A DNA stretch of 34,250 nt, from NCBI GenBank assembly GCA_964642485.1, contig CAZXPA010000002.1, forward strand, positions 1 through 34,250, read 5' to 3'. Shown one piece after another: positions 595 through 32,681 of this stretch. The notes beneath the pieces were generated by a model, which was not told the origin of the DNA, searched no databases, and was given only the letters and a program-made list of their open reading frames with translations. Origin of the DNA: an uncultured Gammaproteobacteria bacterium. Its GTDB lineage: Bacteria > Patescibacteriota > Patescibacteriia > UBA2591 > UBA6264. Position numbers and translations under genes: made by a program. Every line of letters begins with the position of its first letter. Position 1 is the first letter of the stretch.

Positions 595-1812
595 TTAAAA
601 TTTTTCTATCTCAGATTTCCTGACAGCAGCTTTAATAAGCTTTTTTATTCTAATCTTTTTTTCAGCTTTTTCTACATCTTTTAAACGAGCTCTGGTTTCC
701 GGGTGTTTAGGCAAAAATCGGCTGCAGCAATCTTGATCAGGTAAAATAGAGATGTCAAAAGTATTAATTTCTTTAGCTTTTTTTATTATTTCTTCCTTGT
801 CCTGGCCAACTAATGGCCTTAAAATTAATAATTCAACCGCTTGATTAATAACACCAATATTTTCTAGGGTTTGTGAAGCCACCTGACCAAGGCTTTCTCC
901 AGTTACCAGAGCCCGGGCCTTTTCTTTTTTAGCAACCTCTTGAGCGACCTTAAACATTATTCGACGGTATAAAATAATGCGCAACTTAGCCGGAGCATTT
1001 AAAAGAATCTCTTTTTGAATATCAGCAAAAGGCATTAAATAAAGTTTGGATTGAAACTGAAATTTAGTCAAAATTTTAACCAATTTCTTAGCCTTTTTGA
1101 TTGAGTCATCATTAGTATATGGATACGCATGAAAATGGATAAAAACCATTTTCAATCCTCTTTTAATGAGATAAAGGGCCGCAACTGGTGAATCAATCCC
1201 GCCAGAAAGCAACACTAAACCTTTACCGCTCACGCCAACTGGCAAACCACCCAGGCCTTTAATTTTCTCTAAATACAAAAAAGCGAATTTCTCAACAATT
1301 TCAATAAAACAAGTTAAATCTGGATTTTTTAAATCAACTTTTTTATTTAACCTTTCATTCAACCAAGCACCAACTTTTTCATTTATCTTTGGAGAGGTTA
1401 AGTAAAAATCTTTTTTTGATCTTTGAGTTAAAACTCGAAAACTTTTAAATTCTTTATGCTCTAAAAACTCTAATGCTTTTTTTTGAATTGATTCAATGTT
1501 TTGCTCAACACTTTGGGCAAAACAAAAATAAGCTAAACCAAAAACATTCTTCAAACTATCCTGAATCCGTTCTTGTCTTTTTTCCCCCTCAGGGCTTAAC
1601 TCAATAATAATTCGGCCTGAGATCCGCTTTACCCTGTTAAATAATTTCGCCTCTGGCGAAATTGCCGCTTTGCGGCATTTAACAGGGTGAACAAATTCAA
1701 AAAAGCAAGAATCTAAAGACTGTTTTAAATTCTCAACTAGTTTTTCTTCAAAAAACTTTCGATTTTTTCCTTTTAAGCCGATTTCGCTGTAATGACAAAT
1801 AATGTAATTCAT
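595..1812 (-). CDS. thiI: tRNA 4-thiouridine synthase ThiI (THUMP + PP-loop ATPase)
   Basis: PP-loop SGGIDSPVAA. The N-terminus MNYIICHYSEIGLKGKNR is typical of ThiI. The ATG at 1812 is preferred over the ORF-track start at 1848. Carries a 20-aa in-frame repeat insert. Confidence 0.9.
   Translation of the reverse strand: MNYIICHYSEIGLKGKNRKFFEEKLVENLKQSLDSCFFEFVHPVKCRKAAISPEAKLFNRVKRISGRIIIELSPEGEKRQERIQDSLKNVFGLAYFCFAQSVEQNIESIQKKALEFLEHKEFKSFRVLTQRSKKDFYLTSPKINEKVGAWLNERLNKKVDLKNPDLTCFIEIVEKFAFLYLEKIKGLGGLPVGVSGKGLVLLSGGIDSPVAALYLIKRGLKMVFIHFHAYPYTNDDSIKKAKKLVKILTKFQFQSKLYLMPFADIQKEILLNAPAKLRIILYRRIMFKVAQEVAKKEKARALVTGESLGQVASQTLENIGVINQAVELLILRPLVGQDKEEIIKKAKEINTFDISILPDQDCCSRFLPKHPETRARLKDVEKAEKKIRIKKLIKAAVRKSEIEKF
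1630..1692. repeat. 60-bp palindromic element, copy 1 (inside thiI, in frame)
   Basis: Terminal inverted repeats accctgttaaat and atttaacagggt. Inner hairpins aatttcgcc-tctg-ggcgaaatt and gccgc-ttt-gcggc. Related copies at 14779-14854 and 19934-19996. Confidence 0.9.
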
Positions 1813-1899
1813 ATTTAAAATAATACTAAAAAAATAAGATTTTCTCAATAGAAGTTCTTGATTTTTTTAAAAAATCTTATAAGATTAAATAAGAATTTT

Positions 1900-9910: not shown

Positions 9911-9945
9911 TGTCCATAGTTAATAATTACAACTTTGTCGCAAAA

Positions 9946-10018
9946 GCCGAGGTAGCTCAGTGGTACCTGCCTGCCGGCAGGCAGGCCTGCCTGCCGGCAG
10001 GCAGGGAGCAAATGGCTG
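9946..10018 (+). pseudogene. Disrupted 5' half of tRNA-Phe (positions 1-34)
   Basis: gccgaggtagctcagtggta, then a 40-nt palindrome insert, then gagcaaatggctg. This matches nt 1-34 of the downstream tRNA-Phe except for two stem bases. Confidence 0.8.
9966..10005. repeat. Two tandem perfect 20-nt palindromes (cctgcctgccggcaggcagg x2)
   Basis: Read directly from the sequence. The insert sits in the D-loop of the tRNA-Phe 5' fragment. Confidence 0.95.
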
Positions 10019-10031
10019 GTTTCAAATTTCT

Positions 10032-10274
10032 ATGACTTATAAAGTCTACGCTATTAAAAATAAAAAGGGAAGGATTTATATTGGACTAACAAAAAACATA
10101 AATCAACGATTAAAAGATCATAATAGTGGAAAAGTTTTTTCAACAAAAGGTTATAGACCGTGGGATTTATTTTATAATGAATTTTGTACAGATAGGATTA
10201 AAGCGCGGAAACGCGAAAAATTTTTAAAATCAGGCTGTGGTAAAGAATTTCTTAAAAAACTCATGCCGAGGTAG
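10032..10274 (+). CDS. Small GIY-YIG nuclease-family protein (80 aa)
   Basis: YKVYAIKNKKGRIYIGLTKNINQRLKDHNSG...REKFLKSGCG matches the GIY-YIG/UPF0213 pattern. The TAG stop lies inside tRNA-Phe. Confidence 0.85.
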   Translation: MTYKVYAIKNKKGRIYIGLTKNINQRLKDHNSGKVFSTKGYRPWDLFYNEFCTDRIKARKREKFLKSGCGKEFLKKLMPR

Positions 10275-12489: not shown

Positions 12490-12575
12490 TGGTGCCCAGG
12501 GCGGGACTCGAACCCGCACGCTCCGAAGAGCACGGCTCCTCAAGCCGCCATGTTTTCCAATTACATCACCTGGGC
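12490..12575 (-). tRNA. tRNA-Leu(GAG), CCA encoded, long variable arm
   Basis: GCCCAGG..GCGGC-TTGAGGA-GCCGT, variable arm gctcttcggagcgt, T-arm GCGGG-TTCGAGT-CCCGC, then CCTGGGC-A-CCA. Confidence 0.9.
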
Positions 12576-13214
12576 TTGTATTTTAAGGATGTTTTCTACT
12601 TTCTTCTGCTTTCTCAAAAGACATGGAACGCCCTCTTTATAATACATTCTTTTCCAAAGAATCTGTGAATCTCTTTTAGCATATTCTAATTGCCACGATC
12701 CTGTAGCTTTAGATATGCCACCTCCTTTAACTTCTGCCAATTGTTCAATTTGATTATGCAGCCATTTAAGATAAGATAAGCTAGCGGAAGTAAATCGGAT
12801 GTTAAACATAAAACTATTTGGCCACCTTTCATCCCAAAAAGAGTGGCAAGAGCCATCTCCGTCAAAGTATCCCCGTAAAAAATCGAAAAAATATTTATCA
12901 GAAATCTTCAACTCGCCAAGCGTCTTACTTTTAGCTGGAGTTAATCCGATTGTGAGAAGGTAGTTATAAAGTATTACGTGGCTAAATTGAAGCCGAGGAC
13001 ACCTTCTTCCATGTCCATCTGATTTATATGCTATTTTAACATCTAAATTCAAACACTCTTTAAACGTTTTTATTAACTGTATATCTTTAGACGTAAAATC
13101 AATATGTCTGCCGTCTTTAGATAAACATCCATCTGCTGTTAATAAACCAATAGCATAAGCAAACTCTGGCGTCCATTTTATTACATAATCTTTGTTCTTT
13201 TGATTACCCCTCAT
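12561..13214 (-). CDS. Free-standing double-motif LAGLIDADG homing endonuclease-like protein
   Basis: Two LAGLIDADG motifs ([11 protein letters not shown] and [11 protein letters not shown]). ATGA overlap with the rplS stop. The last 15 nt lie inside tRNA-Leu. Confidence 0.85.
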
Positions 13215-13567: not shown

Positions 13568-14153
13568 GTTTATTCTTTAAAAAATTTTTAATCATTTGAA
13601 TAGCTTTTTTCTTAATTTTGCTGATACCCTCTTTGTTGTTATCAACAATAAGATCATATATCTTTTTTTGTCTTAAATTAATTCCATAAAGTTGCTGGTA
13701 ACGCTTTTGATCCCCGTTATCTCTCTGCTCAATCATTTCTCTGGCCTGGGAAAGTGTTAAATTATTTCTTTGACTTAGTCTTTTAATTCGAATTGATTTC
13801 CTACAATCAACAAAAATCTTACAATCAGAAAAATCACCAGACGCCCAACCAGCCAACCGGCCAGCAATAACGTAGCCCCCTTTCATAGCAGTCTTTAACA
13901 TCTGCTCATCTATAAAATAATCAACCTTTGCTGGTAAAGTTTTAGATGCCTTTCCTAATGAAATCTTTCTTTTTCTAGCAAATTTTCTCAGGATATCGCC
14001 GGCATTTATGAATTCTAATTTGAAATAACGAGCTATTTCTTTAGCAATTGTATCTTTGCCTGAAGCAGCAAATCCTGAGACAGTGATGGTTAACCCTTTT
14101 TTTCTAATTACTGCTTTTTCGTGTCTTTTTAGAAATTTTAAATATGTTCCCAT
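13527..14153 (-). CDS. cmk: Cytidylate kinase-like P-loop kinase
   Basis: P-loop-like motif [11 protein letters not shown], adjacent to FINAGDILR. About 200 aa, archaeal-type cmk-like. Confidence 0.7.
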
Positions 14154-14950
14154 TATTGACTATTTTTTAATTTTTTTAAAAAATCATCTAACTCTTTTGG
14201 TAACCCACTTTTAAACTCTTGCCACCTATTATTTAAATCATAAAAACCTAAATAACAAGCATGTAAAAATATTCTCCCTAATTTTTGTTTGGTTGTTAAA
14301 TTGTTTAATTGTTTAATTGAATATCGCCTGTCCCCAACAATTGGACAATTAATTGATTTAAGATGAACTCTTATCTGATGAGTCCGGCCAGTTGCCGGTC
14401 TTACCTGCAAAAGGGTAAAATCCTTAAATTGTTTTTTGATTTTATACCTTGTAAATGCCGGCTTCTCGTCTTTTATCTTTTTTCTATACTGAACAGCAAC
14501 AATTTTCCCTTCTCTAGTTCTAGCTAAAGGTATATCAATTATTCCTCTTTTTTCTAAAGGCCTGCCATGAACTAAAGCTAAATATTCTTTTTTTATCTTA
14601 CCCTGTTTAAACTGCTCAATTAAGACTTGATACATTTTTTCCGTCCGGGCCACAACCATTAAGCCAGAGACATCTCTGTCTAGACGATGGACAATCCCCC
14701 ATCGTCCTGGCTGACCAACCCCTTTTATCTCTGGATAATATTTTAAAAGCAAGTCAACTAAAGTTTTGTCTAAAGAATATTTAACAGGGTGAACCCTGTT
14801 AAATAATTTCGCCCTTGGCGAAATTCCTGCTCCGCAGGATTTAACAGGGTGAACCAATAAACCGGCTGGTTTATCAACTATTAAAAAATTATCATCCTTG
14901 GTCAGGATGTCTAATTTTATATCAAATTTAGGGAAAAAGTCAACTGGCAT
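14153..14950 (-). CDS. RluA-family pseudouridine synthase (no S4 domain)
   Basis: Motifs DKPAGLLVHP, HRLDRDVSGLMVVART and GRTHQIRVHL. Carries a 20-aa in-frame repeat insert directly after LLVHP. Confidence 0.9.
   Translation of the reverse strand: MPVDFFPKFDIKLDILTKDDNFLIVDKPAGLLVHPVKSCGAGISPRAKLFNRVHPVKYSLDKTLVDLLLKYYPEIKGVGQPGRWGIVHRLDRDVSGLMVVARTEKMYQVLIEQFKQGKIKKEYLALVHGRPLEKRGIIDIPLARTREGKIVAVQYRKKIKDEKPAFTRYKIKKQFKDFTLLQVRPATGRTHQIRVHLKSINCPIVGDRRYSIKQLNNLTTKQKLGRIFLHACYLGFYDLNNRWQEFKSGLPKELDDFLKKLKNSQ
14779..14854. repeat. 60-bp palindromic element, copy 2 (inside the rluA-family gene), plus a 16-bp direct repeat
   Basis: atttaacagggtgaac occurs at 14779-14794 and 14839-14854, exactly 60 bp apart. 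Inner hairpins aatttcgcc-cttg-ggcgaaatt and cctgc-tcc-gcagg. Confidence 0.9.
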
Positions 14951-17151: not shown

Positions 17152-17226
17152 TGGTGGGCGTAGATGGATTTGAACCATCGACCTTTTCTTTATCAGAGAA
17201 ACGCTCTACCCCTGAGCTATACGCCC
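17152..17226 (-). tRNA. tRNA-Ile(GAU), CCA encoded
   Basis: GGGCGTA..TTTCT-CTGATAA-AGAAA..GATGG-TTCAAAT-CCATC-TACGCCC-A-CCA. Confidence 0.9.
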
Positions 17227-17240
17227 AAAATCATTCTATC

Positions 17241-17265
17241 ATTTTAACAATATAACATTTTAACA
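17241..17265 (-). promoter_or_regulatory. Two tandem extended -10 boxes (TGtTAAAAT) upstream of tRNA-Ile
   Basis: Minus-sense tgttaaaatgttatattgttaaaatgatagaatgatttt, then the tRNA. The proximal box ends 14 nt from the tRNA 5' end. Confidence 0.55.
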
Positions 17266-17371
17266 AAAACATTTCAACTATATGATTGCATAATAATAGA
17301 ATAACAAAAAAACCAGTTAAAATCAATCCCTCACCCAGAATTTATGCATTTTTTAATGCGAAGCATATATC

Positions 17372-17409: not shown

Positions 17410-17627
17410 GTTTTATATACACACTTTCAAAAATGCTGAGCATTAAATGAGCAGGTTCTTATAAATTCCGGGTAAGAGATGAAGAATTTGTCAAAGGCAG
17501 AGAGAGCCAACCTTTACCTTACCTTGAATCTTATATGATTCAAGGGTCGACCTCGTTACTGTTAAACAGCAACTGAGTCCTCTAAATGAGGTGATCCACC
17601 CACAGCTTCCGCTACGGGTGCCTTGTT

Positions 17628-17939
17628 CATGTTATTCCCTATGTTTCCATGGGCACGGACTATATCTTCACCCCCTTCTTTCGATCGAAAGGAGGGGGGC
17701 CAACGTATGATAACAGTTTGATTCTCTAATAAACTTAGAGCCCCTGCTATCAAAGGTATAAACCTTAAGTCTCTACGGGGCGAAGCACTCAACGCCTTGA
17801 GTGCTCGCTTCCCACGATGTTGCCTTCATGCCTTTATTTTAGCATAAAATGACTAAAAAATAAAGAGTAAGGGTTCACCGTTATAGTTGGGTTTTTCTTA
17901 AGGATTACTCCCTAAGGTCGCAATTTACAGGTTGTAACC
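17628..17939 (-). mobile_element. Group I intron (312 nt, no ORF) at E. coli-equivalent position about 1498
   Basis: Interrupts AAGTCGT|AACAAGG. The 5' exon ends in U and the intron ends in G. Core-like GTAGAGACTTAAGG and GAAGATATAGTCCGT elements. GCGAC can pair with exon GUCGU, with a U-G pair at the splice site. Confidence 0.8.
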
Positions 17940-18358
17940 ACGACTTCGCCCCTGTTACCAATCCTACCTTATTCCCGCGAACGCGGACTTTCGGGTATTA
18001 CCGGCTTCCTTGGCGTGACGGGCAGTGAGTACAAAGTTTGGGAACGTATTCACCGTACCGTAGCTGATATACGGTTACTAGCGATTCCAGCTTCATGAGG
18101 TCGAGTTGCAGACCTCAATCCGAACTGAGACCGGCTTTGATGGGATTAGCTCCGCCTTACGGCTTTGCGACCCTTTGTACCGGCCATTGTACCACGTGTG
18201 TTGCCCAGGGCATAAGGGCCATGCTGATTTGACGTCGTCCCCACCTTCCTCCGGCTCATCACCGGCAGTCCTCTTAGAGTGCCCAACTTCTTAAAAGAAT
18301 GATGGCAACTAAGAGCAAGGGTTGCGCTCGTTTCCCCACTTAAGGGTACACGTCACCG

Positions 18359-18389
<31 letters not shown>

Positions 18390-18519
18390 ACTAGGTTCCG
18401 ATTTTACGGTCAGTCAACCTTTCGGCTAACCTACAACCTAGCGAGTCAAGCCCTGGTGAGGTTCTTCGCTTAGCATCGAATTAAACCACATGGTCCACCG
18501 CTTGTGCAAACTCCCGTCT

Positions 18520-18551
<32 letters not shown>

Positions 18552-18932
18552 TCCCAGGCGGGATGCTTAACGCGTTAGCTTTTTTACTGCGGCACTGAAA
18601 GGGTCGACACTTCCAATGCCCAGCATCCATCGTTTACGGCGTGGAATACCGGGGTATCTAATCCCGTTCTCTCCCCACGCTTTCGTGTCTCAGCGTCAGA
18701 ACTGTTCTAGCAAGCTGCCTTCGCATTCGGTGTTCCTGCCGATATTAACGGATTCTACCCCTACACCGGCAGTTCCACTTGCCTCTCCCAGTCTCTAGTT
18801 TAATAGTTTTTCTGGCGCTCCCAATGTTGAGCAAAGGGCTTTAACCAGAAACTTATTAAACCGCCTACACACGCTTTACGCCCAGTAAATCCGGATAACG
18901 CTTGTCGCCTTCGTCTTACCGCAGCTGCTGGC

Positions 18933-19380
18933 TGTATACTCATAATAGAGTAATTGCTACGGACTATATCACAATCCTTTTTTATAAATAAAAGGACCCT
19001 CGGCGTATGATAACAGTTTATAATTCCAGATTATCTGGCACCTGTTATCTCATCGCTTAATATTTAGCTTTAAGCGAATCAGTCTCTGAGGGGTTAATCC
19101 CGACTTGTCGGGACAACTTCCCTGCTGATTGCCTATAAGCTGTTTCGTCATAAACGAAATGCAGCAAAATCTTAAAGTTTAGATAAGAATTTTAACCTTT
19201 TCAAACTTCAAGGTTCTGGCAAAGCCAGGTTCTTATAGTTTGGCAATAAGATATTATACCTTTCAAACTTCAAGGTTCTGGCAAAGCCAGGTTCTTATAG
19301 GTTTCCAGCATATAAGCCAAGTTTTTCAACTTCGATTACTCGAAGAAGTCGCGCTCTTTGATAAGACGAAAATTAATTGC
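18933..19380 (-). mobile_element. Group I intron (about 448 nt, no ORF) at E. coli-equivalent position about 516
   Basis: Interrupts CTTCGT|GCCAGCAGC. Core-like CTCAGAGACTGATT and GTGATATAGTCCGT. Shares aaactgttatcatacg with the other intron. Boundaries are ambiguous by 1-2 nt. Confidence 0.75.
19195..19300. repeat. 43-44 bp direct repeat (period 63 bp) inside the position-516 intron
   Basis: acctttt-caaacttcaaggttctggcaaagccaggttcttatag at 19195-19238 and again at 19258-19300, differing by one T. Confidence 0.9.
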
Positions 19381-19821
19381 ACGAAGTTAGCTGCGACTTA
19401 TTCCTGGGGTACACTCAACCGAAGCTTGTTCCCCCAGAAAAGCAGTTTACACTCCGAAAAGATTCATCCTGCACGCGGCGTCGCTCCTTCAGCCTTTCGG
19501 CCATTGAGGAAGATTCTTGACTGCAGCCCCCCGTAGGAGATTGAGCAGTGTCTCAGTCTCAATGAGGCGGATCATGCTCTCACACCCGCTACCCGTCATC
19601 GGCTTGGTAGGCCATTACCCTACCAACAACCTGATGGGCCATAAGCTCCTCAGAAAGCGCGATTGCTCGCTTTACTAAGCACTCAATATGAGTGCTCAGC
19701 ATATGGGGTATTAGCCTCGATTTCTCGAGGTTATTCCCCTCTTTCCGGCAGATTACTAATGTGTTACTCTCCCGTTTGCCACTGCCTGATAAATCAGGCC
19801 GTTCGACTTGCATGCCTTAGA

Positions 19822-19861
<40 letters not shown>

Positions 19862-19933
19862 TTAAAAAAGATTTGATCTAATAAATAAAAGGAATAGATT
19901 GGCTAATTCTCTACCTTTGACAAATTCTTCATT

Positions 19934-19996
19934 TTACCCTGTTAAATGCCGCTTCGCGGCAATTTCGCCAAGGGCGAAATTATTTAACAGGGTGAA
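19934..19996. repeat. 60-bp palindromic element, copy 3 (intergenic, between trmD and 16S)
   Basis: taccctgttaaat-gccgc-ttc-gcggc-aatttcgcc-aag-ggcgaaatt-atttaacagggtga. On the plus strand it is in the opposite orientation to copies 1 and 2. Confidence 0.9.
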
Positions 19997-21749: not shown

Positions 21750-21758
21750 AACAAAATC

Positions 21759-21767
21759 ATTTTAACA
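21759..21767 (-). promoter_or_regulatory. Extended -10 box TGtTAAAAT, 9 nt upstream of the rpsP ATG (second copy at 21783-21791)
   Basis: Minus-sense aatgttaaaatgattttgttATG. Confidence 0.5.
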
Positions 21768-21885
21768 TTAGAACATTGGAACATTTTAACATAATCTTTT
21801 AAAAAAGCAATGAGTGTTTTATTTATTCATAGCATTCGCATACATTCGCTCGCCTCGTCTCCGAGTCGGAGCGGGTAGATTGGCA

Positions 21886-22608
21886 TTATTTTTGTGCTTT
21901 CTTGGCCACTAAATTACTGGCCCTGAGTAAAGAATCAAATGTGCCGGCATCTGACCAAAACCCTTTAACAACCTCAAAAGAAGCTGTTTTTTGGTTGATA
22001 TAGAAATTATTTACATCAGTAATCTCTAATTCTCCTCTTTGAGAGGGTTTTAAGGTCTTAATTACATCAAAAACTTGACCATCATACATATAAAGACCAG
22101 TTACAGCATATTGACTCTTTGGTTTTTTCGGTTTTTCTTCAATCTTGATTATCTTTTTCCCTTTAAGCTGAGCCACGCCAAAACGTTCTGGATCTGAAAC
22201 TTTCTTTAAAAAAACCTTAGCTCCCCATTTTTGATTTTCAAAATCCTTAACTGCCCTAGTAAAATCATCTTCAAAAATATTATCACCTAAAATAACCACT
22301 ACCTTACCAGTGTCAGCAAAATCTTCAGCCAAGCCCAGGGCCTCAGCAATCCCCCCAGATCCTTCCTGATAAGTATAATGAATCTCTTTTAAACCAAACT
22401 CTTTTCCATTGCCCAAAAGTTTTAGAAAATCACCTGGGTTATTACCACCAGTAACAATTAAAACCTCCTTAATGCCCGCATTGACCAGCGTTTCTAAAGG
22501 ATAATAGATCATAGGCTTCTTAAAAACTGCTAAACAATGTTTGTTGGTGACTTTTGTTAAGGGGAGTAACCGGGTTCCGGTTCCCCCGGCAAGAATGATT
22601 CCCTTCAT
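21886..22608 (-). CDS. Sugar-phosphate nucleotidyltransferase (glucose-1-phosphate thymidylyl/uridylyltransferase-like)
   Basis: MKGIILAGGTGTRLLPLT signature, and a short (240 aa) RfbA-like fold. Confidence 0.85.
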   Translation of the reverse strand: MKGIILAGGTGTRLLPLTKVTNKHCLAVFKKPMIYYPLETLVNAGIKEVLIVTGGNNPGDFLKLLGNGKEFGLKEIHYTYQEGSGGIAEALGLAEDFADTGKVVVILGDNIFEDDFTRAVKDFENQKWGAKVFLKKVSDPERFGVAQLKGKKIIKIEEKPKKPKSQYAVTGLYMYDGQVFDVIKTLKPSQRGELEITDVNNFYINQKTASFEVVKGFWSDAGTFDSLLRASNLVAKKAQK

Positions 22609-23492
22609 ATATTTATTGATTTAATCTTCTTTTTTATTAATAAAAACTTGTTATATTTCCTGCGCATCCTATTAACATTTCGACTATCCTTATATAACCA
22701 TTCTAGAATTCTAAGCGCTTGTATATTCCCTCTATATCTTAATGCATAATGATCTCTATTCTTTATATTATTAGTCAATCTTGTTTCACCTACCTTACAA
22801 TATTTAATCAAATAATTCTGGATACTTTTTAAAAGACTTTTTGTCCCTACAATCTGAAAACAAAGAGAGAAATGCCTTTCATCAAACATTATGCTGCCAT
22901 CGCCCTCAAAAATACCCCGAATAAAACTTTTAAAAATATCCTCTCTGTCTTTTTCCTCTATCTCTTTTAAGAATCTTTCGTTTAGAGACTTCTTTTCTCT
23001 CAGACCAAGAGCGATCAATCTATCCACTACATATTCATTATGAATATGTAATGCCAGCTGACCAGAGCAATTGATCATTACTCCCTTAGAAGAGATTCTG
23101 CTATAGGGTGAACGTTTATATAAAGGCCCAGTATATTGCAAAAATTTTTTAATTTTTAAGAGCACGTCTTGATCGCTCATTCTTATCGCAATCCCAAAAT
23201 ATTTAATTGGTCTTAACCTTATAAAACCGTCGCTTAATAACCAGCCTAATACCCATGCAACATCAGGAGTAATTTTATCAAAAAACTTCTCATTTGCGCT
23301 ATATTTAGTTCTATAAAGAGATAGCTTCCATGTCTTATTTCGAATTTCAATATCAAACCCTTTTAATCGATGACTGATCACCCATCGAGAACACCCAACT
23401 GTACGAGCTATTTCATCTTGACTCAATTTATTTTCTATATATTCATTAACCAAAAACTTTTTTGATATTTTATATTGTAATTCTGTTGGCAT
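22605..23492 (-). CDS. Free-standing LAGLIDADG homing endonuclease-like protein with N-terminal HTH
   Basis: LGWLLSDGFI and IRGIFEGDGSI motifs, plus an N-terminal LSQDEIARTVGCSRWVISHRLK helix-turn-helix. ATGA overlap with the downstream gene. Confidence 0.8.
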   Translation of the reverse strand: MPTELQYKISKKFLVNEYIENKLSQDEIARTVGCSRWVISHRLKGFDIEIRNKTWKLSLYRTKYSANEKFFDKITPDVAWVLGWLLSDGFIRLRPIKYFGIAIRMSDQDVLLKIKKFLQYTGPLYKRSPYSRISSKGVMINCSGQLALHIHNEYVVDRLIALGLREKKSLNERFLKEIEEKDREDIFKSFIRGIFEGDGSIMFDERHFSLCFQIVGTKSLLKSIQNYLIKYCKVGETRLTNNIKNRDHYALRYRGNIQALRILEWLYKDSRNVNRMRRKYNKFLLIKKKIKSINI

Positions 23493-23666: not shown

Positions 23667-24500
23667 TTAATAATTGCAACCTTCGGCTCTTTTAAATCCT
23701 GCTACCTCGGCCTCTTCTTCAGTACAAAAATATCTGTCTCCTTTTTCCAAATCCACCTTCACTCTTTTATAATTGGGGCAACCAGGAAGAAAATATGTTT
23801 TTCCATACCCATGCTCTGAAATATTGCCCTTAATAACACATTCGGGATTTGGCGGAGGATCATTTGTTTCAAAAGTGGATGTTTTTTCTTTCAATCCCTG
23901 TTCGCAAGCGCCCCACATCCCTCTTCCCCTAGTAACTGCCTCATTACGACTATGTATTAAAATATTATTATACCGCCCCCTCTTAGACATAAACAAAGTA
24001 TTAGCAAAACCCTGTTCTAAAAGATAATCATTAACAAAAACATCGTTTGTAAAATCTCCCTCAACTAAAAATACGTAACGGAGTAATCTACCAAATCTAT
24101 CTGTTCCAAAAATATCTTTTTCCAGTTCTATATTTCTTCCTAAAACAAGCTCATTTAAGGCCTGTTTTGCTTCGCTGTAATAGCAGTCACCTTGCTCAGG
24201 AGAATCAATCCCGAGAAGACGAACAACATTTCCATCATTTATTTCTATTGTATCCCCATCAATGACTCTAACAACCTCTACTAATTCAGGCCCAAATTCT
24301 GGGGCAACATCTGAACCTGTTTCAGGCTCCATTAAACTACCTGTTCCAAACAGCGCAATCAAAATAATAAGCAATCCGCTTAAATATTTTCTTAATGTTT
24401 CATTGGATCCAGTTAAAGTCAGTACACCAATTACTGCGCCAAGAACAACAATAAAGCCTAAAAATAACTGTCTAAGTTTTTTAAATTCCTCTTTTTTCAT
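23667..24500 (-). CDS. Membrane-anchored thermonuclease (SNase-like) with Cys-containing C-terminal domain
   Basis: TM helix, then VVRVIDGDTIE...VRLLGIDSPE...DRFGRLLRYV (SNase fold). C-terminus IKGNISEHGYGKTYFLPGCPNY...YFCTEEEAEVAGF. The ATG at 24500 is preferred over the TTG at 24527. Confidence 0.85.
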   Translation of the reverse strand: MKKEEFKKLRQLFLGFIVVLGAVIGVLTLTGSNETLRKYLSGLLIILIALFGTGSLMEPETGSDVAPEFGPELVEVVRVIDGDTIEINDGNVVRLLGIDSPEQGDCYYSEAKQALNELVLGRNIELEKDIFGTDRFGRLLRYVFLVEGDFTNDVFVNDYLLEQGFANTLFMSKRGRYNNILIHSRNEAVTRGRGMWGACEQGLKEKTSTFETNDPPPNPECVIKGNISEHGYGKTYFLPGCPNYKRVKVDLEKGDRYFCTEEEAEVAGFKRAEGCNY

Positions 24501-24508
24501 AAATTTAC

Positions 24509-24527
24509 TTGGAAACTTAGTTTCCAA
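24509..24527. promoter_or_regulatory. 19-bp palindrome ttggaaac-tta-gtttccaa upstream of the SNase gene
   Basis: Perfect 8-bp arms. The 29-nt context is repeated at 25438-25466. Confidence 0.6.
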
Positions 24528-24540
24528 ATGGTTTATACTT

Positions 24541-25389
24541 TTACCAAACTACTTCATCAATTTTTGTATATTTTTCCTCAATTTTATCTTTATCCGGGCA
24601 GATGTTTCTATATTCACACCAGGGACATAGTTTGTTAATACGAGGCGAAAAATTATTATCATCCCTGGCTTCCTTTATAATGTTAACAATTTCATTTTCT
24701 ATTTTTTTTAATTCATCTTTAGTCCATATTATATCATAAATCTTTGAATACTTAATATAAATCAATCCGGCTTTAATCTTTTTTGCAAAAGGATAAAGTT
24801 TAGAAGCTATAATTGCATAAACAGGAACCTGAAGGTCCTTTTCCATCATCTTTTCTACACTATCACGATAAGGCAATTTTCCAGTCTTATAATCCCACAC
24901 TGAAATTGAAGATTCTGAATCTTGATCAATTCTGTCTATTCGACCCGCTATTACAAATTCATCTATACTGCACTGCATCCAATCTTCTAAAGATAGCGGA
25001 ACTATTGATAAATCAGCTTTTGAAATATAATTGTTCAACATTGCAATTGTCTTTAGCCCAAAGGCTTTTTCTTGCTCCACGGATCCAAATAGCTTTTTTC
25101 TTTCTTTGGCGCTCCAGCAGTCACTACTCCAACTACTCTTGGGCGCTCTGGCCCATGAATATCTTAGCATCTCGCCTAAATCTTGATCTCTTCTTTTATT
25201 TATTGGAATTTTTCTAATATCAAAAAATTTTTCAAGAACTAGATGTATTACTTTGCCGATAAAGCTTTCAGGGCTTTCAACAAATTCTGCTTTTACCTCC
25301 CTGTCGTTATGACATTTAAATTTAAACGGACACTGAATATAGGTATTCAATGCATTAGGAAATATTTTTTCTGGAAATATATATGCCAT
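24541..25389 (-). CDS. Cas4/AddB-like PD-(D/E)XK nuclease with 4-Cys Fe-S cluster motif
   Basis: N-terminal Cys (YIQCPFKFKC), GRIDRID, VWDYKTGK, QVPVY, and C-terminal CPWCEYRNIC. Confidence 0.8.
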   Translation of the reverse strand: MAYIFPEKIFPNALNTYIQCPFKFKCHNDREVKAEFVESPESFIGKVIHLVLEKFFDIRKIPINKRRDQDLGEMLRYSWARAPKSSWSSDCWSAKERKKLFGSVEQEKAFGLKTIAMLNNYISKADLSIVPLSLEDWMQCSIDEFVIAGRIDRIDQDSESSISVWDYKTGKLPYRDSVEKMMEKDLQVPVYAIIASKLYPFAKKIKAGLIYIKYSKIYDIIWTKDELKKIENEIVNIIKEARDDNNFSPRINKLCPWCEYRNICPDKDKIEEKYTKIDEVVW

Positions 25390-26280: not shown

Positions 26281-27147
26281 CTATACGGCTCCGATTTGTA
26301 ATTTTAAAATCTTTGAAAGACGATTCACAGGGAATAAATCCTTGGGATATATCTCAACTAATTTAATGTTATATTTTCTGCAAATCTTTTGTTTTTTTCT
26401 AACTAATTTATCATATTCTTTCAGATCGCCTGCCAATCCGAAAAATTCTATAAAAATATCTTTGATAACAAAATCAACGCTTAAGGAATTATTCCCAGGA
26501 TATGGGACTCTTCTCTCATGCCCAATATTTTGATCAGAAAGCCAATCGTCAATTATTTTTTCAGAAAAAGAATCGCATTTGTGTCCGTCATTGGCAATAT
26601 GCTTTTTAGCAAACAATACTGGATTCGGATTAAAACCCGCTGCTTTAATTGCATTATTCCAATTGCCAAATCGGTTTCGGGTAGCACAATAGTGATGAAA
26701 TTCTCTTTTAAGAGGAATTCGTTTATTTCTTTCGTAAAATTCTTTGATTAGCTTACAGATAGTTTCTTTACTTACGACTTGAGATTTGTGTTTACATTTT
26801 ATCGAGCAATATATTTGGTGACCAAAAAATTCCTTACCACAATAATTGCATTTATCCTTCAGTTTTTTCTTTTTGGGAAATTTAGAGTTATTAAATGAAG
26901 CAGCACAAGAGAGAGAACAGAAAACGTTACCTGATTTAGATTTTCTAAATTGATTTAATAACCGAGAGATTTTCTTACTACAATTAGGGTTGGCACAAAT
27001 TTTTTCTACCCTCCTCAACCTATATTGACTTTGGCATTTTATAGAACAATACTGATTCCAGTCGAATTTATTGGCTTCATTTACTCGGCCTAATGTTCTG
27101 TAAAATCTTTTACCACAAAAGTCACACTTAACTTTAACTAAATTCAT
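26281..27147 (-). CDS. Three Cys4 zinc-finger (FCS-like) modules + HEAR-like repeat + C-terminal restriction-endonuclease-like domain
   Basis: CDFCGK..YCSIKC, CANPNC..FCSLSC and CNYCGK..YCSIKC. Then RIPLKREF...FGNWNNAIKAAGF. Then SEKIIDDWL...SVDFVI..IFIEFFG. Confidence 0.65.
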   Translation of the reverse strand: MNLVKVKCDFCGKRFYRTLGRVNEANKFDWNQYCSIKCQSQYRLRRVEKICANPNCSKKISRLLNQFRKSKSGNVFCSLSCAASFNNSKFPKKKKLKDKCNYCGKEFFGHQIYCSIKCKHKSQVVSKETICKLIKEFYERNKRIPLKREFHHYCATRNRFGNWNNAIKAAGFNPNPVLFAKKHIANDGHKCDSFSEKIIDDWLSDQNIGHERRVPYPGNNSLSVDFVIKDIFIEFFGLAGDLKEYDKLVRKKQKICRKYNIKLVEIYPKDLFPVNRLSKILKLQIGAV

Positions 27148-27431: not shown

Positions 27432-27529
27432 AATAAAAGCAATTAAACAAATAAACAACTTAACATAAAAATAGTTTAGCAAATTTCTAAATTAAAGCAA
27501 TCTTTTTTATTATTGCTAAATTGCTAAAT

Positions 27530-27538
27530 TGCTAAAAT
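27530..27538 (+). promoter_or_regulatory. Extended -10 box TGcTAAAAT, 8 nt upstream of the M50 protease ATG
   Basis: attgctaa occurs three times in tandem (27512-27537), ending in tgctaaaat-gatttcaa-ATG. Confidence 0.5.
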
Positions 27539-27546
27539 GATTTCAA

Positions 27547-28155: not shown

Positions 28156-28312
28156 TCCCTGCTACTCTCGTAATGCTTGACATTTCTAAGAAATAAAGTA
28201 AAATACAGGTCATCATAATATATAACATGGCAACATGAGAACATTTCCTGCCTGCGGCAGGTAAAAAAAGAAATTTCTATAAAGCAAAATTTCTTATGTT
28301 CCAATGTTCCAA

Positions 28313-28321
28313 TGCTAAAAT
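28313..28321 (+). promoter_or_regulatory. Extended -10 box TGcTAAAAT, 8 nt upstream of the rpsL ATG
   Basis: atgttccaatgttccaatgctaaaat-gaattagt-ATG. Confidence 0.5.
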
Positions 28322-28329
28322 GAATTAGT

Positions 28330-28824: not shown

Positions 28825-29298
28825 ATGCGTGGAAAACCAGCCCCCAAAAGAAAAATCTCTCCTGATCCCAAGTACCATCTTGTTCAAATGGCTAAATTTA
28901 TTAATTACGTGATGAGAAAAGGCAAAAAAACTATTGCCTCAAAAACGGTTTATCAGGCCATAGAGATCATTAAGCAAAAAATTAAAAAAGACCCAATTGA
29001 TATCTTCCAAAAAGCAATTAAAAATACTTCTCCCGTAGTCGAAGTAAGATCTCGTCGAATTGGCGGAGCTAATTACCAAATCCCCTTCCCAACAAATGAA
29101 TCCCGCCGTTTTGTTTTAGCCTCACGCTGGATTATTGAGGCAGCTAAAGCCCGAAAAGGCAAATCAATGTCAGAAAAATTAGCTCAAGAACTTTTAGATG
29201 CCGCCTACAGGCAAGGCGCCGCCGTTAAGAAAAAAGAGGATATCCATCGAATAGCTGAAGCAAATAAGGCCTTTGCTCATTTTGCTAGATATCATTAA
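28825..29298 (+). CDS. rpsG: 30S ribosomal protein S7
   Basis: PDPKY...VEVRSRRIGGANYQIP...ANKAFAHF. Confidence 0.97.
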   Translation: MRGKPAPKRKISPDPKYHLVQMAKFINYVMRKGKKTIASKTVYQAIEIIKQKIKKDPIDIFQKAIKNTSPVVEVRSRRIGGANYQIPFPTNESRRFVLASRWIIEAAKARKGKSMSEKLAQELLDAAYRQGAAVKKKEDIHRIAEANKAFAHFARYH

Positions 29299-29414
29299 AT
29301 CATTTTAATATTCTAACGTTTTAACATATTAACATGCCCCCCCCCTCTAATCTCCCCCTCCCAGAGGGACGGGGAGAAAATTGTTAAATTGTTTCATTGT
29401 TAAATTAGCTTAAT

Positions 29415-32067: not shown

Positions 32068-32151
32068 CAGAAACAAATTAACAACTAAACAACTTAACAA
32101 TTAAACAAAGAATAAAAAAAACAAAATCAATTCCATGGGATTTTGTTAGAA

Positions 32152-32168
32152 TGTTAAAATGTTAAAAT
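32152..32168 (+). promoter_or_regulatory. Two overlapping extended -10 boxes (TGtTAAAAT x2), 6 nt upstream of the infC GTG
   Basis: atgttaaaatgttaaaat-gattta-GTG. Confidence 0.45.
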
Positions 32169-32174
32169 GATTTA

Positions 32175-32681
32175 GTGAAGTACTATCGCTTTAACAATCA
32201 AATATCTGCAACCCAGGTTCGCTTGATTGACGAAAATGGTAAACATTTAGGTACAATTGAAACCACTAAAGCCTTAGAGATGGCTCGAGGAAAAGGATTA
32301 GATTTAGTAGAAATCGACCCAAAAGTAGATCCACCAATAGCAAAAATTCTGGATTTTGGTCGATTTAAATATGAACTAAAGAGAAAAGATCGACAACAAA
32401 AAAAACAACATAAGGCCGGCGGTATTAAAGGGATTCGTCTGACACCAAGAATCGGCAAACATGACTTAGAGCTCCGAGTTACTAAGGCTAGAGAGTTTCT
32501 TTTAGAAAAACAAAAAATAAAAATTGAAATGGTTCTCCGGGGCAGAGAAAAAGCCCACTTTGATCTGGCTGAGAAACTGGTGAAACACTTTATTGAATTG
32601 CTTGGCGAAGAAATAAAAATTGAACAACCGCCAAAAAGACAAGGTAGCCGGTTGATTGCTGTGATTAGCCCTACCAAGTAA
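32175..32681 (+). CDS. infC: Translation initiation factor IF-3
   Basis: NNQISATQVRLIDENGKHLG...LDLVEI...PIAKILDFGRFKYE. Non-ATG (GTG) start, as is usual for infC. Confidence 0.95.
   Translation: MKYYRFNNQISATQVRLIDENGKHLGTIETTKALEMARGKGLDLVEIDPKVDPPIAKILDFGRFKYELKRKDRQQKKQHKAGGIKGIRLTPRIGKHDLELRVTKAREFLLEKQKIKIEMVLRGREKAHFDLAEKLVKHFIELLGEEIKIEQPPKRQGSRLIAVISPTK

Follow-up and report, generated by a model that had tools for sequence, protein, structure and literature searches.

Rickettsia palindromic elements (RPEs), about 100-150 bp long and grouped into ten sequence families, are confined to Rickettsia, where many of them lie in frame in unrelated housekeeping genes and are translated as peptide segments compatible with the host fold (PMC10969869). 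The stretch of DNA analysed here, 34,250 nucleotides of contig CAZXPA010000002.1 (hereafter the window) from a low-G+C member of the Patescibacteria (candidate phyla radiation, CPR; close homologues of its proteins are labelled 'Patescibacteria group bacterium' or 'Candidatus Nealsonbacteria'), contains three copies of a palindromic element with three stems: one in frame in thiI, one in frame in a gene for an RluA-type pseudouridine synthase and one in the leader of the 16S rRNA. Judged from sequence, the resemblance to RPEs appears to lie in small palindromic repeats scattered through a reduced genome and in in-frame gene inserts (ThiI, RluA, GatA and KsgA), whereas the differences are a length of 43-68 bp, a T-shaped three-way junction, termini that are identical across phyla and a mostly intergenic placement. 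The original prediction, made from the letters of the window, had called the element RPE-like; this stands as a description of its behaviour and falls as a statement of family membership, from which the element is set apart by its size and host.

[quoted passage not shown] In contrast to MITEs, there is no target-site duplication at the sole unambiguous junction (thiI), about 1 Mb of loci yielded no parent insertion sequence that shares its ends, the interior is bound to two hairpins, and the spread across phyla is unusual for a MITE family. To our knowledge no target-site duplication has been reported for RPEs, and in this respect the thiI junction resembles them. Short structured palindromes, no target duplication and an orientation bias relative to genes or replication are shared with repetitive extragenic palindromic (REP) sequences, BIME and REPIN (RAYT, Y1 HUH) and with the PATE of IS200/IS605, and by analogy the element is probably recognised, as these are, as a folded single strand. 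Unlike REP and REPIN sequences, which are imperfect palindromes of 20-40 nt, it is without a GTAG-type 5' tetranucleotide, its inner hairpins are unlike each other, its outer stem is long and sequence-specific, and no RAYT/TnpA gene is found among the 32 open reading frames (ORFs) scanned in the window.

No prokaryotic repeat family described so far combines termini invariant across phyla with a strictly structural interior, insertion without duplication and flip/flop isomers. We put at roughly 70 % the probability that the elements are a family of small, non-coding, mobile palindromic repeats, MITE-, REP- or RPE-like in behaviour, which could be named 'three-stem' or 'T-shaped elements'. The whole unit (core plus 4 nt; 60 nt here) inserts in the centre of RTT^AA without target-site duplication, can be lost by deletion between its repeated ends or of its interior, nests into other copies, and has its interior inverted between the ends. 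A trans-acting enzyme would recognise fold and ends, most probably on folded single-stranded or cruciform DNA. Such an element, we infer, would be selfish rather than useful to the host, and its need to propagate would be what preserves fold and ends. The spread across phyla, a TT^AA junction free of duplication, the flip/flop of the interior and the mostly intergenic copies all go beyond what had been predicted from the window.

Three copies and one empty site

All three copies lie where they had first been placed, and folding bears out in each the proposed outer stem, now put at 13-15 bp, around two hairpins, which abut directly. Chance alone would give 1.4 occurrences of the 11-mer CCCTGTTAAAT or its complement in the window; there are seven, and these half-sites resolve into three inverted pairs and one solo half-site. 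In a repeat search of the window the copies are mutually 86-89 % identical; neither a looser search (3 mismatches allowed) nor a covariance model found further copies in it. Folding energies of the copies lie between -31 and -36 kcal/mol, with z from -5.8 to -7.9, a stability matched by none of 200 shuffles, and the fold of each forms on either strand. Both compensatory pairs that had been noticed between the small hairpins GCCGC/GCGGC and CCTGC/GCAGG are confirmed, and the translations given for the ThiI and RluA-type copies (VHPVKCRKAAISPEAKLFNRV and VHPVKSCGAGISPRAKLFNRV) are correct.

Copy 1 occupies positions 1630-1689 on the minus strand, inside the gene for the tRNA 4-thiouridine synthase ThiI (595-1848, minus strand; Pfam ThiI, THUMP and ThiI_fer, and orthologue alignment), whose true start is likely the methionine of MNYIICHY at 1812. 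On the coding strand it reads, from 5' to 3', CA, CCCTGTTAAAT, the hairpin GCCGC AAA GCGGC, the hairpin AATTTCGCC AGA GGCGAAATT, ATTTAACAGGG and TA, with the core from CCCTGTTAAAT to ATTTAACAGGG at 1632-1687; it adds the residues HPVKCRKAAISPEAKLFNRV to the protein, in the translated context given above, and interrupts the ThiI_fer match. The nearest of 120 aligned homologues (P0001, 94-95 % identical) lacks exactly these 20 residues, and its DNA (L121) provides a clean empty site, GAATTTGTT^AAGCGA, where the window has GAATTTGTT|CACCCTG…CAGGGTA|AAGCGG. The junctions are unambiguous, cannot be shifted by one base and contain no duplicated base; the insert is therefore exactly 60 nt long and sits in the centre of TTAA without a target-site duplication, which rules out models with TA, TNA or TTAA target-site duplications. 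The in-frame 60 nt and 20 codons of the original prediction thus stand, and its boundaries (1630-1692) move to 1630-1689, as fixed by the empty site.

Because the 94-95 % identical relative is empty there, the element appears, on sequence comparison, to have been gained recently at thiI in the lineage of the window. Across about 50 kb of this close relative (L121, L125-127) the covariance model finds no copy, against three in the 34-kb window. Of the source samples SRR8146440 and ERZ24794676, the latter contains occupied as well as empty alleles, in related populations. Elsewhere, only P0002, P0013 and P0015 among the 120 homologues, 63-72 % identical to the window's protein, carry inserts at the same codon, and the palindrome is present at the nucleotide level in both insert-bearing thiI genes whose DNA was fetched (P0002 and P0015). 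With the window included, 4 of 121 homologues are occupied, and the nearest neighbours of each are empty.

The second copy, which had been predicted in another housekeeping gene in the same orientation and frame, indeed lies in a gene for an RluA/RluD-family pseudouridine synthase (14153-14950, minus strand; Pfam PF00849, PseudoU_synth_2, and alignment). Copy 2 (14794-14851, minus strand) consists of a core at 14794-14849 and a 2-nt right end, and is preceded by an extra element end, ATTTAACAGGGTGAA (14779-14793, minus strand; 11-mer half-site at 14779-14789), that encodes a second VHPVK. The net gain is 60 nt, or 20 codons, which read KSCGAGISPRAKLFNRVHPV (or the same in an equivalent register) in the context VHPVKSCGAGISPRAKLFNRV; the small hairpin is CCTGC/GCAGG. 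The half-site at 14779-14793 and positions 14839-14854 form a 16-nt direct repeat around the 44-nt interior. A 95 % identical RluA orthologue (L125-L127, three independent assemblies) is without the 60 nt and keeps exactly one 16-mer GTTCACCCTGTTAAAT (VHPVK) where the window has two, which we read as a gain in the relative that would have been followed by repeat-mediated loss.

The insert follows the conserved motif KPxGxxVHP, and other RluA orthologues have a native LLVHP(D/T)KYS at the site. Inserts at the same site, of the form …LLVHP(V/I)KC…FNRVNP(D/N)KY…, occur in P0122, P0123, P0124 and P0126; P0134 and P0137 carry other, longer insertions at the position. An occupied and an empty gene (L128 and L129) differ by 60 nt within an ACCC microhomology, and the native rluA sequence GTTCAYCC resembles the element end TTCACCC. 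The genome of L128, which carries the RluA insert, also has a copy directly after the khpA stop codon (L128:5137-5200), with a compensatory change in its outer stem (TCCTGTTAAAT / ATTTAACAGGA).

Could such a unit have arrived by site-specific recombination? A folded-DNA site for a tyrosine recombinase, similar to integron attC or CTX-phage attP and moving as small circles with GTTAAAT/ATTTAAC as core sites and the structure setting the choice of strand, would explain why copy 2 is a 60-nt unit flanked by a 16-nt direct repeat, as left by a circle that integrates through its own end. GTTRRRY is matched by GTTAAAT and by the thiI target GTTAAGC, and RYYYAAC by ATTTAAC; an interior that varies in sequence but is structured, between conserved ends, is the attC pattern, and attC sites share with the element the 7-nt boxes of this consensus at the base of the stem and a size of about 55-70 nt. 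The boxes, however, stand in the inverted order, 5'-GTTRRRY...RYYYAAC-3' and not 5'-RYYYAAC...GTTRRRY-3' (GTTAAAT..ATTTAAC on both strands), the stems pair perfectly and have no extrahelical bases, the junction has no unpaired base in 75 of 85 two-hairpin interiors where attC has an unpaired central spacer, there are no cassette arrays, and none of the 32 window ORFs scanned is integrase-like. Moreover, the thiI junction falls after GTT, which is impossible by the integron-type G^TT crossover; this crossover was rejected, and recombination of this kind strikes us as quite improbable.

Copy 3 (19935-19994, minus strand; core at 19937-19992) had been listed as intergenic at 19934-19996; it is present, and its place can be refined to the 16S rRNA leader, 66 nt upstream of the 16S gene. 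It directly adjoins the 25-bp 16S processing stem, whose 5' arm (19908-19932, minus strand) pairs with 17479-17503 (25 nt, 96 % complementary). Its end polarity relative to transcription is that of copies 1 and 2 (TT|CA..TA|AA on the minus strand), while its inner hairpins stand in the opposite order relative to the ends ('flop'). No terminator-like or promoter consensus sites were found around copy 3, and placement shows no bias that would suit an intrinsic terminator: family-wide, convergent gene pairs flank 11 copies and divergent pairs also 11, and some copies lie inside ORFs, so a terminator or promoter role was discarded. The 16S gene itself (17913-19867) is 1955 nt long against a 1533-nt model, an insertion of about 420 nt; it contains a 53-nt direct repeat (19189-19241 and 19251-19303, 91 % identical) and an antisense ORF of 98 aa (19240-19536) without a Pfam match.

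An independent Logan assembly (L132) has an identical copy 3 sequence, and its contig breaks inside the element. Breaks of short-read assemblies at the element are what one would expect if it were an artefact, a palindromic chimera made by the assembler or during library preparation, and an assembly chimera had been named from the outset as something that could undo the finding. The same inserts nevertheless recur at the same codons in assemblies from different projects and assemblers, copies are found in single-cell genomes and a closed genome (L014, L024 and L061), and the diversity of the copies is structured and shows covariation. Since independent assemblies (ENA, Logan, NCBI and JGI) share the structures, they are not chimeras, and we attach next to no weight to an artefact.

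Spread, ends and fold of the family

One genome per GTDB species was scanned with the pattern CCCTGTTAAAT-N20-50-ATTTAACAGGG, which returned at least 120 loci, where about one match would be expected by chance (our own rough estimate); the family counts given here cover 133 copies, the window's three included, among the matches listed. The covariance model and wide search proposed with the original prediction gave at least 130 further copies (E mostly 1e-9 to 1e-20), the model adding only about 10 %, those with imperfect ends. Among the matches listed, many hosts are Patescibacteria (Nealson-, Doudna-, Niyogi-, Nomura-, Kaiser-, Sungii- and Morani-bacteria, Paceibacterota and metagenome-assembled genomes (MAGs) labelled Saccharibacteria); others are Desulfobacterota (including a 4.1-Mb contig), WOR-3/Stahlbacteria and Omnitrophota, together with a few MAGs of Bacteroidota, Cloacimonadota, Acidobacteriota and Armatimonadota. 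The G+C content of the loci varies by host group from 0.38 to 0.46. The usual density is one copy per 8-kb locus, in housekeeping contexts, with several per MAG, and about 116 of 131 copies among the matches listed are intergenic. The 2.9 million viral contigs of IMG/VR gave a single match, and a viral origin was rejected on that ground.

The unit is 43-68 nt long across the family, with one-hairpin (35 nt) and long (120-146 nt) forms in addition; copies are nested in L044, L093 and L031 and tandem in L011. In Desulfobacterota a 48-nt three-stem unit is embedded in a conserved, multi-branched palindromic repeat of about 220 nt with its own outer inverted repeats (GAGGCTGATGGAAAACGCCCATCTGC / GCATATGGACATTTTCCATCAGCCTC), seen within ±110 nt of L013, L015, L017, L025, L035, L036, L054, L071, L072, L074, L088, L090 and L098; Rfam has no match for this larger repeat (18 loci). 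In WOR-3 (L118:4722-6447) the terminal repeat reaches 24 nt (ACGCAGATTAACCCTGTTAAATAA) around an interior that is not a hairpin, and three small copies bracket a 1.3-kb segment with a HARE-HTH protein and a 100-aa ORF, with no transposase. A neighbouring 224-aa gene, uracil-DNA glycosylase-like by appearance, takes its last four codons (HPVK) and its stop from a copy.

The original prediction had not recognised the element as a described family, and no Rfam family or paper was found for it here either. In Rfam 15 no family overlaps the copies at the gathering threshold, the best permissive hit having E = 3 (mir-1991, 14 bits versus a threshold of 66). In the literature nothing but primers that match by chance was found for the terminal sequences and the HPVK/LFNRV peptides, and searches on Patescibacteria or CPR with MITE or palindromic repeat gave CRISPR papers only, nothing relevant. 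The family is therefore apparently undescribed, provisionally so, as the literature searched is incomplete.

What is it, then, that holds so dispersed a family together? The units end in 5'-(C/T)A CCCTGTTAAAT ... ATTTAACAGGG T(A/G)-3', the two ends pairing with each other, around interiors that share almost no sequence. Exactly two hairpins are nonetheless formed by 85 of 126 unique interiors, and in 75 of these 85 not a single base is left unpaired at the junction. In an alignment of 35 sequences, chosen for folding, so that 85/126 is the unbiased figure, all 14 inner pairs covary: there are 103 double-change cells against 42±5.5 after shuffling, no shuffle of 500 reaches this number, and sliding the partner columns lowers pairing from 87.5 % to 35-50 %. 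The argument first drawn from two compensatory changes, that the fold is under selection, is thereby upheld at the scale of the family.

Oriented copies read TT|CA-core-TA|AA on one strand, with a C·A mismatch (T·G on the other strand) conserved at the extreme termini, in a column that is unpaired in 24 of the 35 sequences. The target consensus RTT^AA is present in 37-43 of 43 oriented copies (purine at -3 in 38, TT in 37-39 and AA in 40-43), nothing is conserved further out, and the flanks of the element are inverted, not direct. End polarity does not dictate the order of the inner hairpins (17 copies versus 9), which also varies among orthologous copies at an intergenic site near hydrogenase genes. 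Order that varies with fixed end polarity implies that the ends keep their place and the interior is turned round between them. An outer stem around two small internal palindromes, with 'flip' and 'flop' isomers, is reminiscent of the inverted terminal repeats of adeno-associated virus (AAV) and other parvoviruses, though ordinary recombination or template switching between inverted repeats would explain the inversion equally well. This likeness is architectural only: the viral repeats are the 125-145-nt ends of linear single-stranded DNA virus genomes and have Rep-binding GAGC repeats and a nicking site, whereas the elements are chromosomal interspersed repeats of about 60 nt.

Is the fold needed in DNA or in RNA? 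Triloops close 109 of 140 hairpins, and GCGAAGC/GCTTCGC is found in 26 of 126 interiors; d(GCGAAGC) is a very stable mini-hairpin. The triloops, the frequency of this motif and the symmetric folding of both strands hint at folding at the DNA level. A decisive RNA-strand signal comes neither from the inner hairpins, with 7 G·U against 4 A·C, nor from the purine bias of the loops.

Copies inside genes and the reading frame

Unrelated genes carry about 15 copies within long ORFs; the hosts include GatA, KsgA, an IscS-like gene and a large Cys-rich ORF. The core length is 2 mod 3 in 13 of 15 such copies as against 44 of 116 intergenic ones (Fisher p = 4e-4), so that core plus 4 nt makes a whole number of codons; none of the 15 contains a stop codon, and most read (V/I)-HPVK-x-FNRV-(K/N), in a frame set by the xTT|AAx codon junction. 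Copies in genes thus appear to survive only when they preserve the frame and are free of stops. They also appear to be translated, adding about 20 residues, and not spliced, because a filter on the frame is expected if the insert stays in mRNA and protein, and splicing would not give it.

The same filter bears on an RNA-level intervening sequence, a mini-intron or processing cassette removed from thiI and rluA mRNA and from pre-rRNA so that the proteins stay normal. As RNA, both strands fold stably, the rRNA leader has a copy beside the processing stem, and Patescibacteria commonly carry rRNA insertions, the window's own 16S gene having about 420 extra nt. Yet splicing requires neither a length of 0 mod 3 nor an open frame, for both of which the gene copies are filtered, there are no bulge-helix-bulge or ribozyme core features and no Rfam match, and a decayed 24-nt remnant in GatA is still in frame. 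Removal at the RNA level is, in our view, very improbable.

AlphaFold2 places the insert of ThiI (residues 42-61) in a turn between strands 38-44 and 63-72; in a model with a mean pLDDT of 82, the sole segment below 50 is residues 46-63, which corresponds to the insert, predicted to be a disordered surface turn (beta-turn). The residues encoded by the hairpin part change radically between orthologous copies (SCGAG, CHSVA, CRKAA) and base pairing is kept, so that the constraint acts on the nucleic acid. At GatA, where L006 has a full 60-nt copy, an orthologue (L133:1742-1765, 77-80 % identical) retains a 24-nt in-frame remnant, CACCCTGTTAAATTTGACAGGGTA (HPVKFDRV), which implies decay by internal deletion; a second clean empty site, for which GatA was considered, is therefore not found there.

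Why should different lineages be occupied at one codon of ThiI or RluA? Perhaps because permissive RTT|AA codon junctions in surface loops are scarce; at rluA, a further factor may be that the native GTTCAYCC looks like the element end. For ThiI, the rarity of permissive in-frame sites is the best explanation, the alternative being an ancient insertion followed by many precise losses. Other ThiI and GatA orthologues (P0009, P0033, P0047, P0088, P0110, P0249, P0297 and P0309) carry different insertions of 10-80 residues in other loops, some with repeated peptides (SKFK…SKFK; …RRVGWSP… twice in P0249), which suggests that further families of repeat-derived inserts may exist.

Probable mobility, a possible host function and the presumed enzyme

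Several observations weigh against a purely mobile repeat. The element could be linked with neither a transposase nor a recombinase, and about 1 Mb of loci held no full-length autonomous relative with the same ends; some phylum assignments depend on MAG binning. The junction rule (TT^AA, no duplication) comes from one fully unambiguous empty/occupied pair, thiI, the rluA junctions being obscured by homology over 4-16 nt. In 21 of 28 informative cases (p = 0.0125), the three window copies included, neighbouring genes have the CA…TA strand as their sense strand, and a purely neutral element need not show such a polarity bias. Between orthologous copies 24-26 of 26 end positions are identical where flanking coding DNA is only 39-84 % identical, which fits purifying selection in situ (a host function) no less than repeated recent insertion. 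One intergenic site, finally, is occupied in six species (L009:2448-2503, L048:3857-3911, L070:1419-1473, L093:2340-2440, L031:5336-5514 and L053:4882-5003); it has conserved flanks (AAAACCTTTA / TGCTCA) and lies in L009 downstream of the gene for the NiFe-hydrogenase large subunit. The interiors at this site are highly different, with nested copies, a 100-nt expansion and inverted order; adjoining GC palindromes (CGCCAGCTGGCG-type) may be another repeat family.

The main rival builds on just these points. A cis motif maintained by the host, its stem CCCTGTTAAAT/ATTTAACAGGG being the site of a conserved protein (a Xer-type recombinase, a nucleoid protein or an RNase) or an RNA-stabilising structure, would explain ends that are near-perfectly conserved at orthologous sites with saturated flanks, the occupation of the hydrogenase site in six species, the 21:7 co-orientation with genes and the contact of copy 3 with the 16S processing stem. 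As no more than a lead, TGTTAAAT matches the XerD arm of E. coli, TTATGTTAAAT, in its outer 8 nt. A dif site, however, has two 11-bp arms around a 6-8-bp centre, whereas here the arms are 20-46 nt apart, with hairpins between them, and a dif-like geometry with a 3-4-nt spacer arises only at accidental tandem junctions (window 14779-14804; L011). Nor is it clear why a host motif should be absent at thiI, and its 60-nt unit at rluA, in a close relative, occupy 4 of 121 ThiI lineages, nest and form tandems, enter unrelated coding regions, and lie equally often between convergent and divergent genes. We therefore consider this explanation unlikely, and retain a mobile repeat as the preferred one.

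Which enzyme might move the repeat? It is conceivable, though we hold it only as a tentative idea with the odds against it, that the elements are substrates of an unrecognised, widespread DNA-transaction system, whose enzyme would be common to Patescibacteria, Desulfobacterota, Omnitrophota, WOR-3 and others. Such an enzyme would recognise, on single-stranded DNA in its folded state, the 13-15-bp stem sequence and the three-way junction in its perfect form, would place the unit in TT^AA by blunt, duplication-free insertion and would flip the interior much as AAV-end hairpins are resolved. The 32 window ORFs scanned contain no transposase, integrase or Y1/HUH protein (RAYT/TnpA), and across about 1 Mb of loci no transposase was found between terminal repeats set far apart.

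Free-standing nucleases among the window ORFs are of the GIY-YIG, LAGLIDADG, HNH-repeat, PD-(D/E)XK and SNase types. The density of nuclease-like and homing-endonuclease-like genes, with two LAGLIDADG_3 (one weak), HNH_repeat, PD-(D/E)XK/Cas4-like and SNase matches, is unusual for 34 kb; in the ORF scan these genes lie at 12561-13214, 22605-23492, 26281-27147, 24541-25389 and 23667-24527. The window has an intact small YhbQ-like GIY-YIG gene, of which the element-free relative has a truncated form; with only 2 further homologues in 0.95 Mb of element-bearing loci, it was set aside as an unsupported lead for the mobiliser. In its region (9936-10274) about 205 nt (9936-10140) are absent from the close relative L125; this segment repeats 20 nt from the 5' end of the tRNA gene beside it, carries the GC palindrome CCTGCCTGCCGGCAGGCAGG twice in tandem (9966-10005) and contains the catalytic N-terminal half of the GIY-YIG gene, whose stop lies in the tRNA gene and whose C-terminal half is all that the element-free relative keeps.

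Two further repeats were seen in the window. An AT-rich motif, …CATTTTAACATT(T/C)TAACA… with the complement TGTTAAAATGTTAAAATGATTT, recurs in both orientations at 17226-17277, 21752-21803, 27505-27543, 28296-28329, 29287-29338 and 32134-32178, at some places directly upstream of genes (tRNA, rpsP) and at others intergenic, and may be a promoter or regulatory box. Positions 1-334, at the window edge, consist of three tandem units of about 102-114 nt, 84-92 % identical, in an ORF (2-457) without a Pfam match.

In practical terms, the three-stem element breaks short-read assemblies, adds 18-22 spurious-looking residues to proteins and splits Pfam matches, and a covariance model for it would improve the annotation of thousands of MAGs. 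Its combination of features points to an enzyme worth finding and, should the DNA-transaction system prove true, this would mean a new mechanism of transposition or recombination, one by which the essential proteins of minimal-genome bacteria would naturally acquire 'designer loops'. For the Patescibacteria themselves, whose streamlined genomes are among the smallest of bacteria, the element offers a direct, datable source of lineage-specific protein insertions: even so, this genome tolerates a proliferating repeat that rewrites surface loops of essential enzymes of RNA modification and translation (ThiI, RluA, GatA and KsgA).

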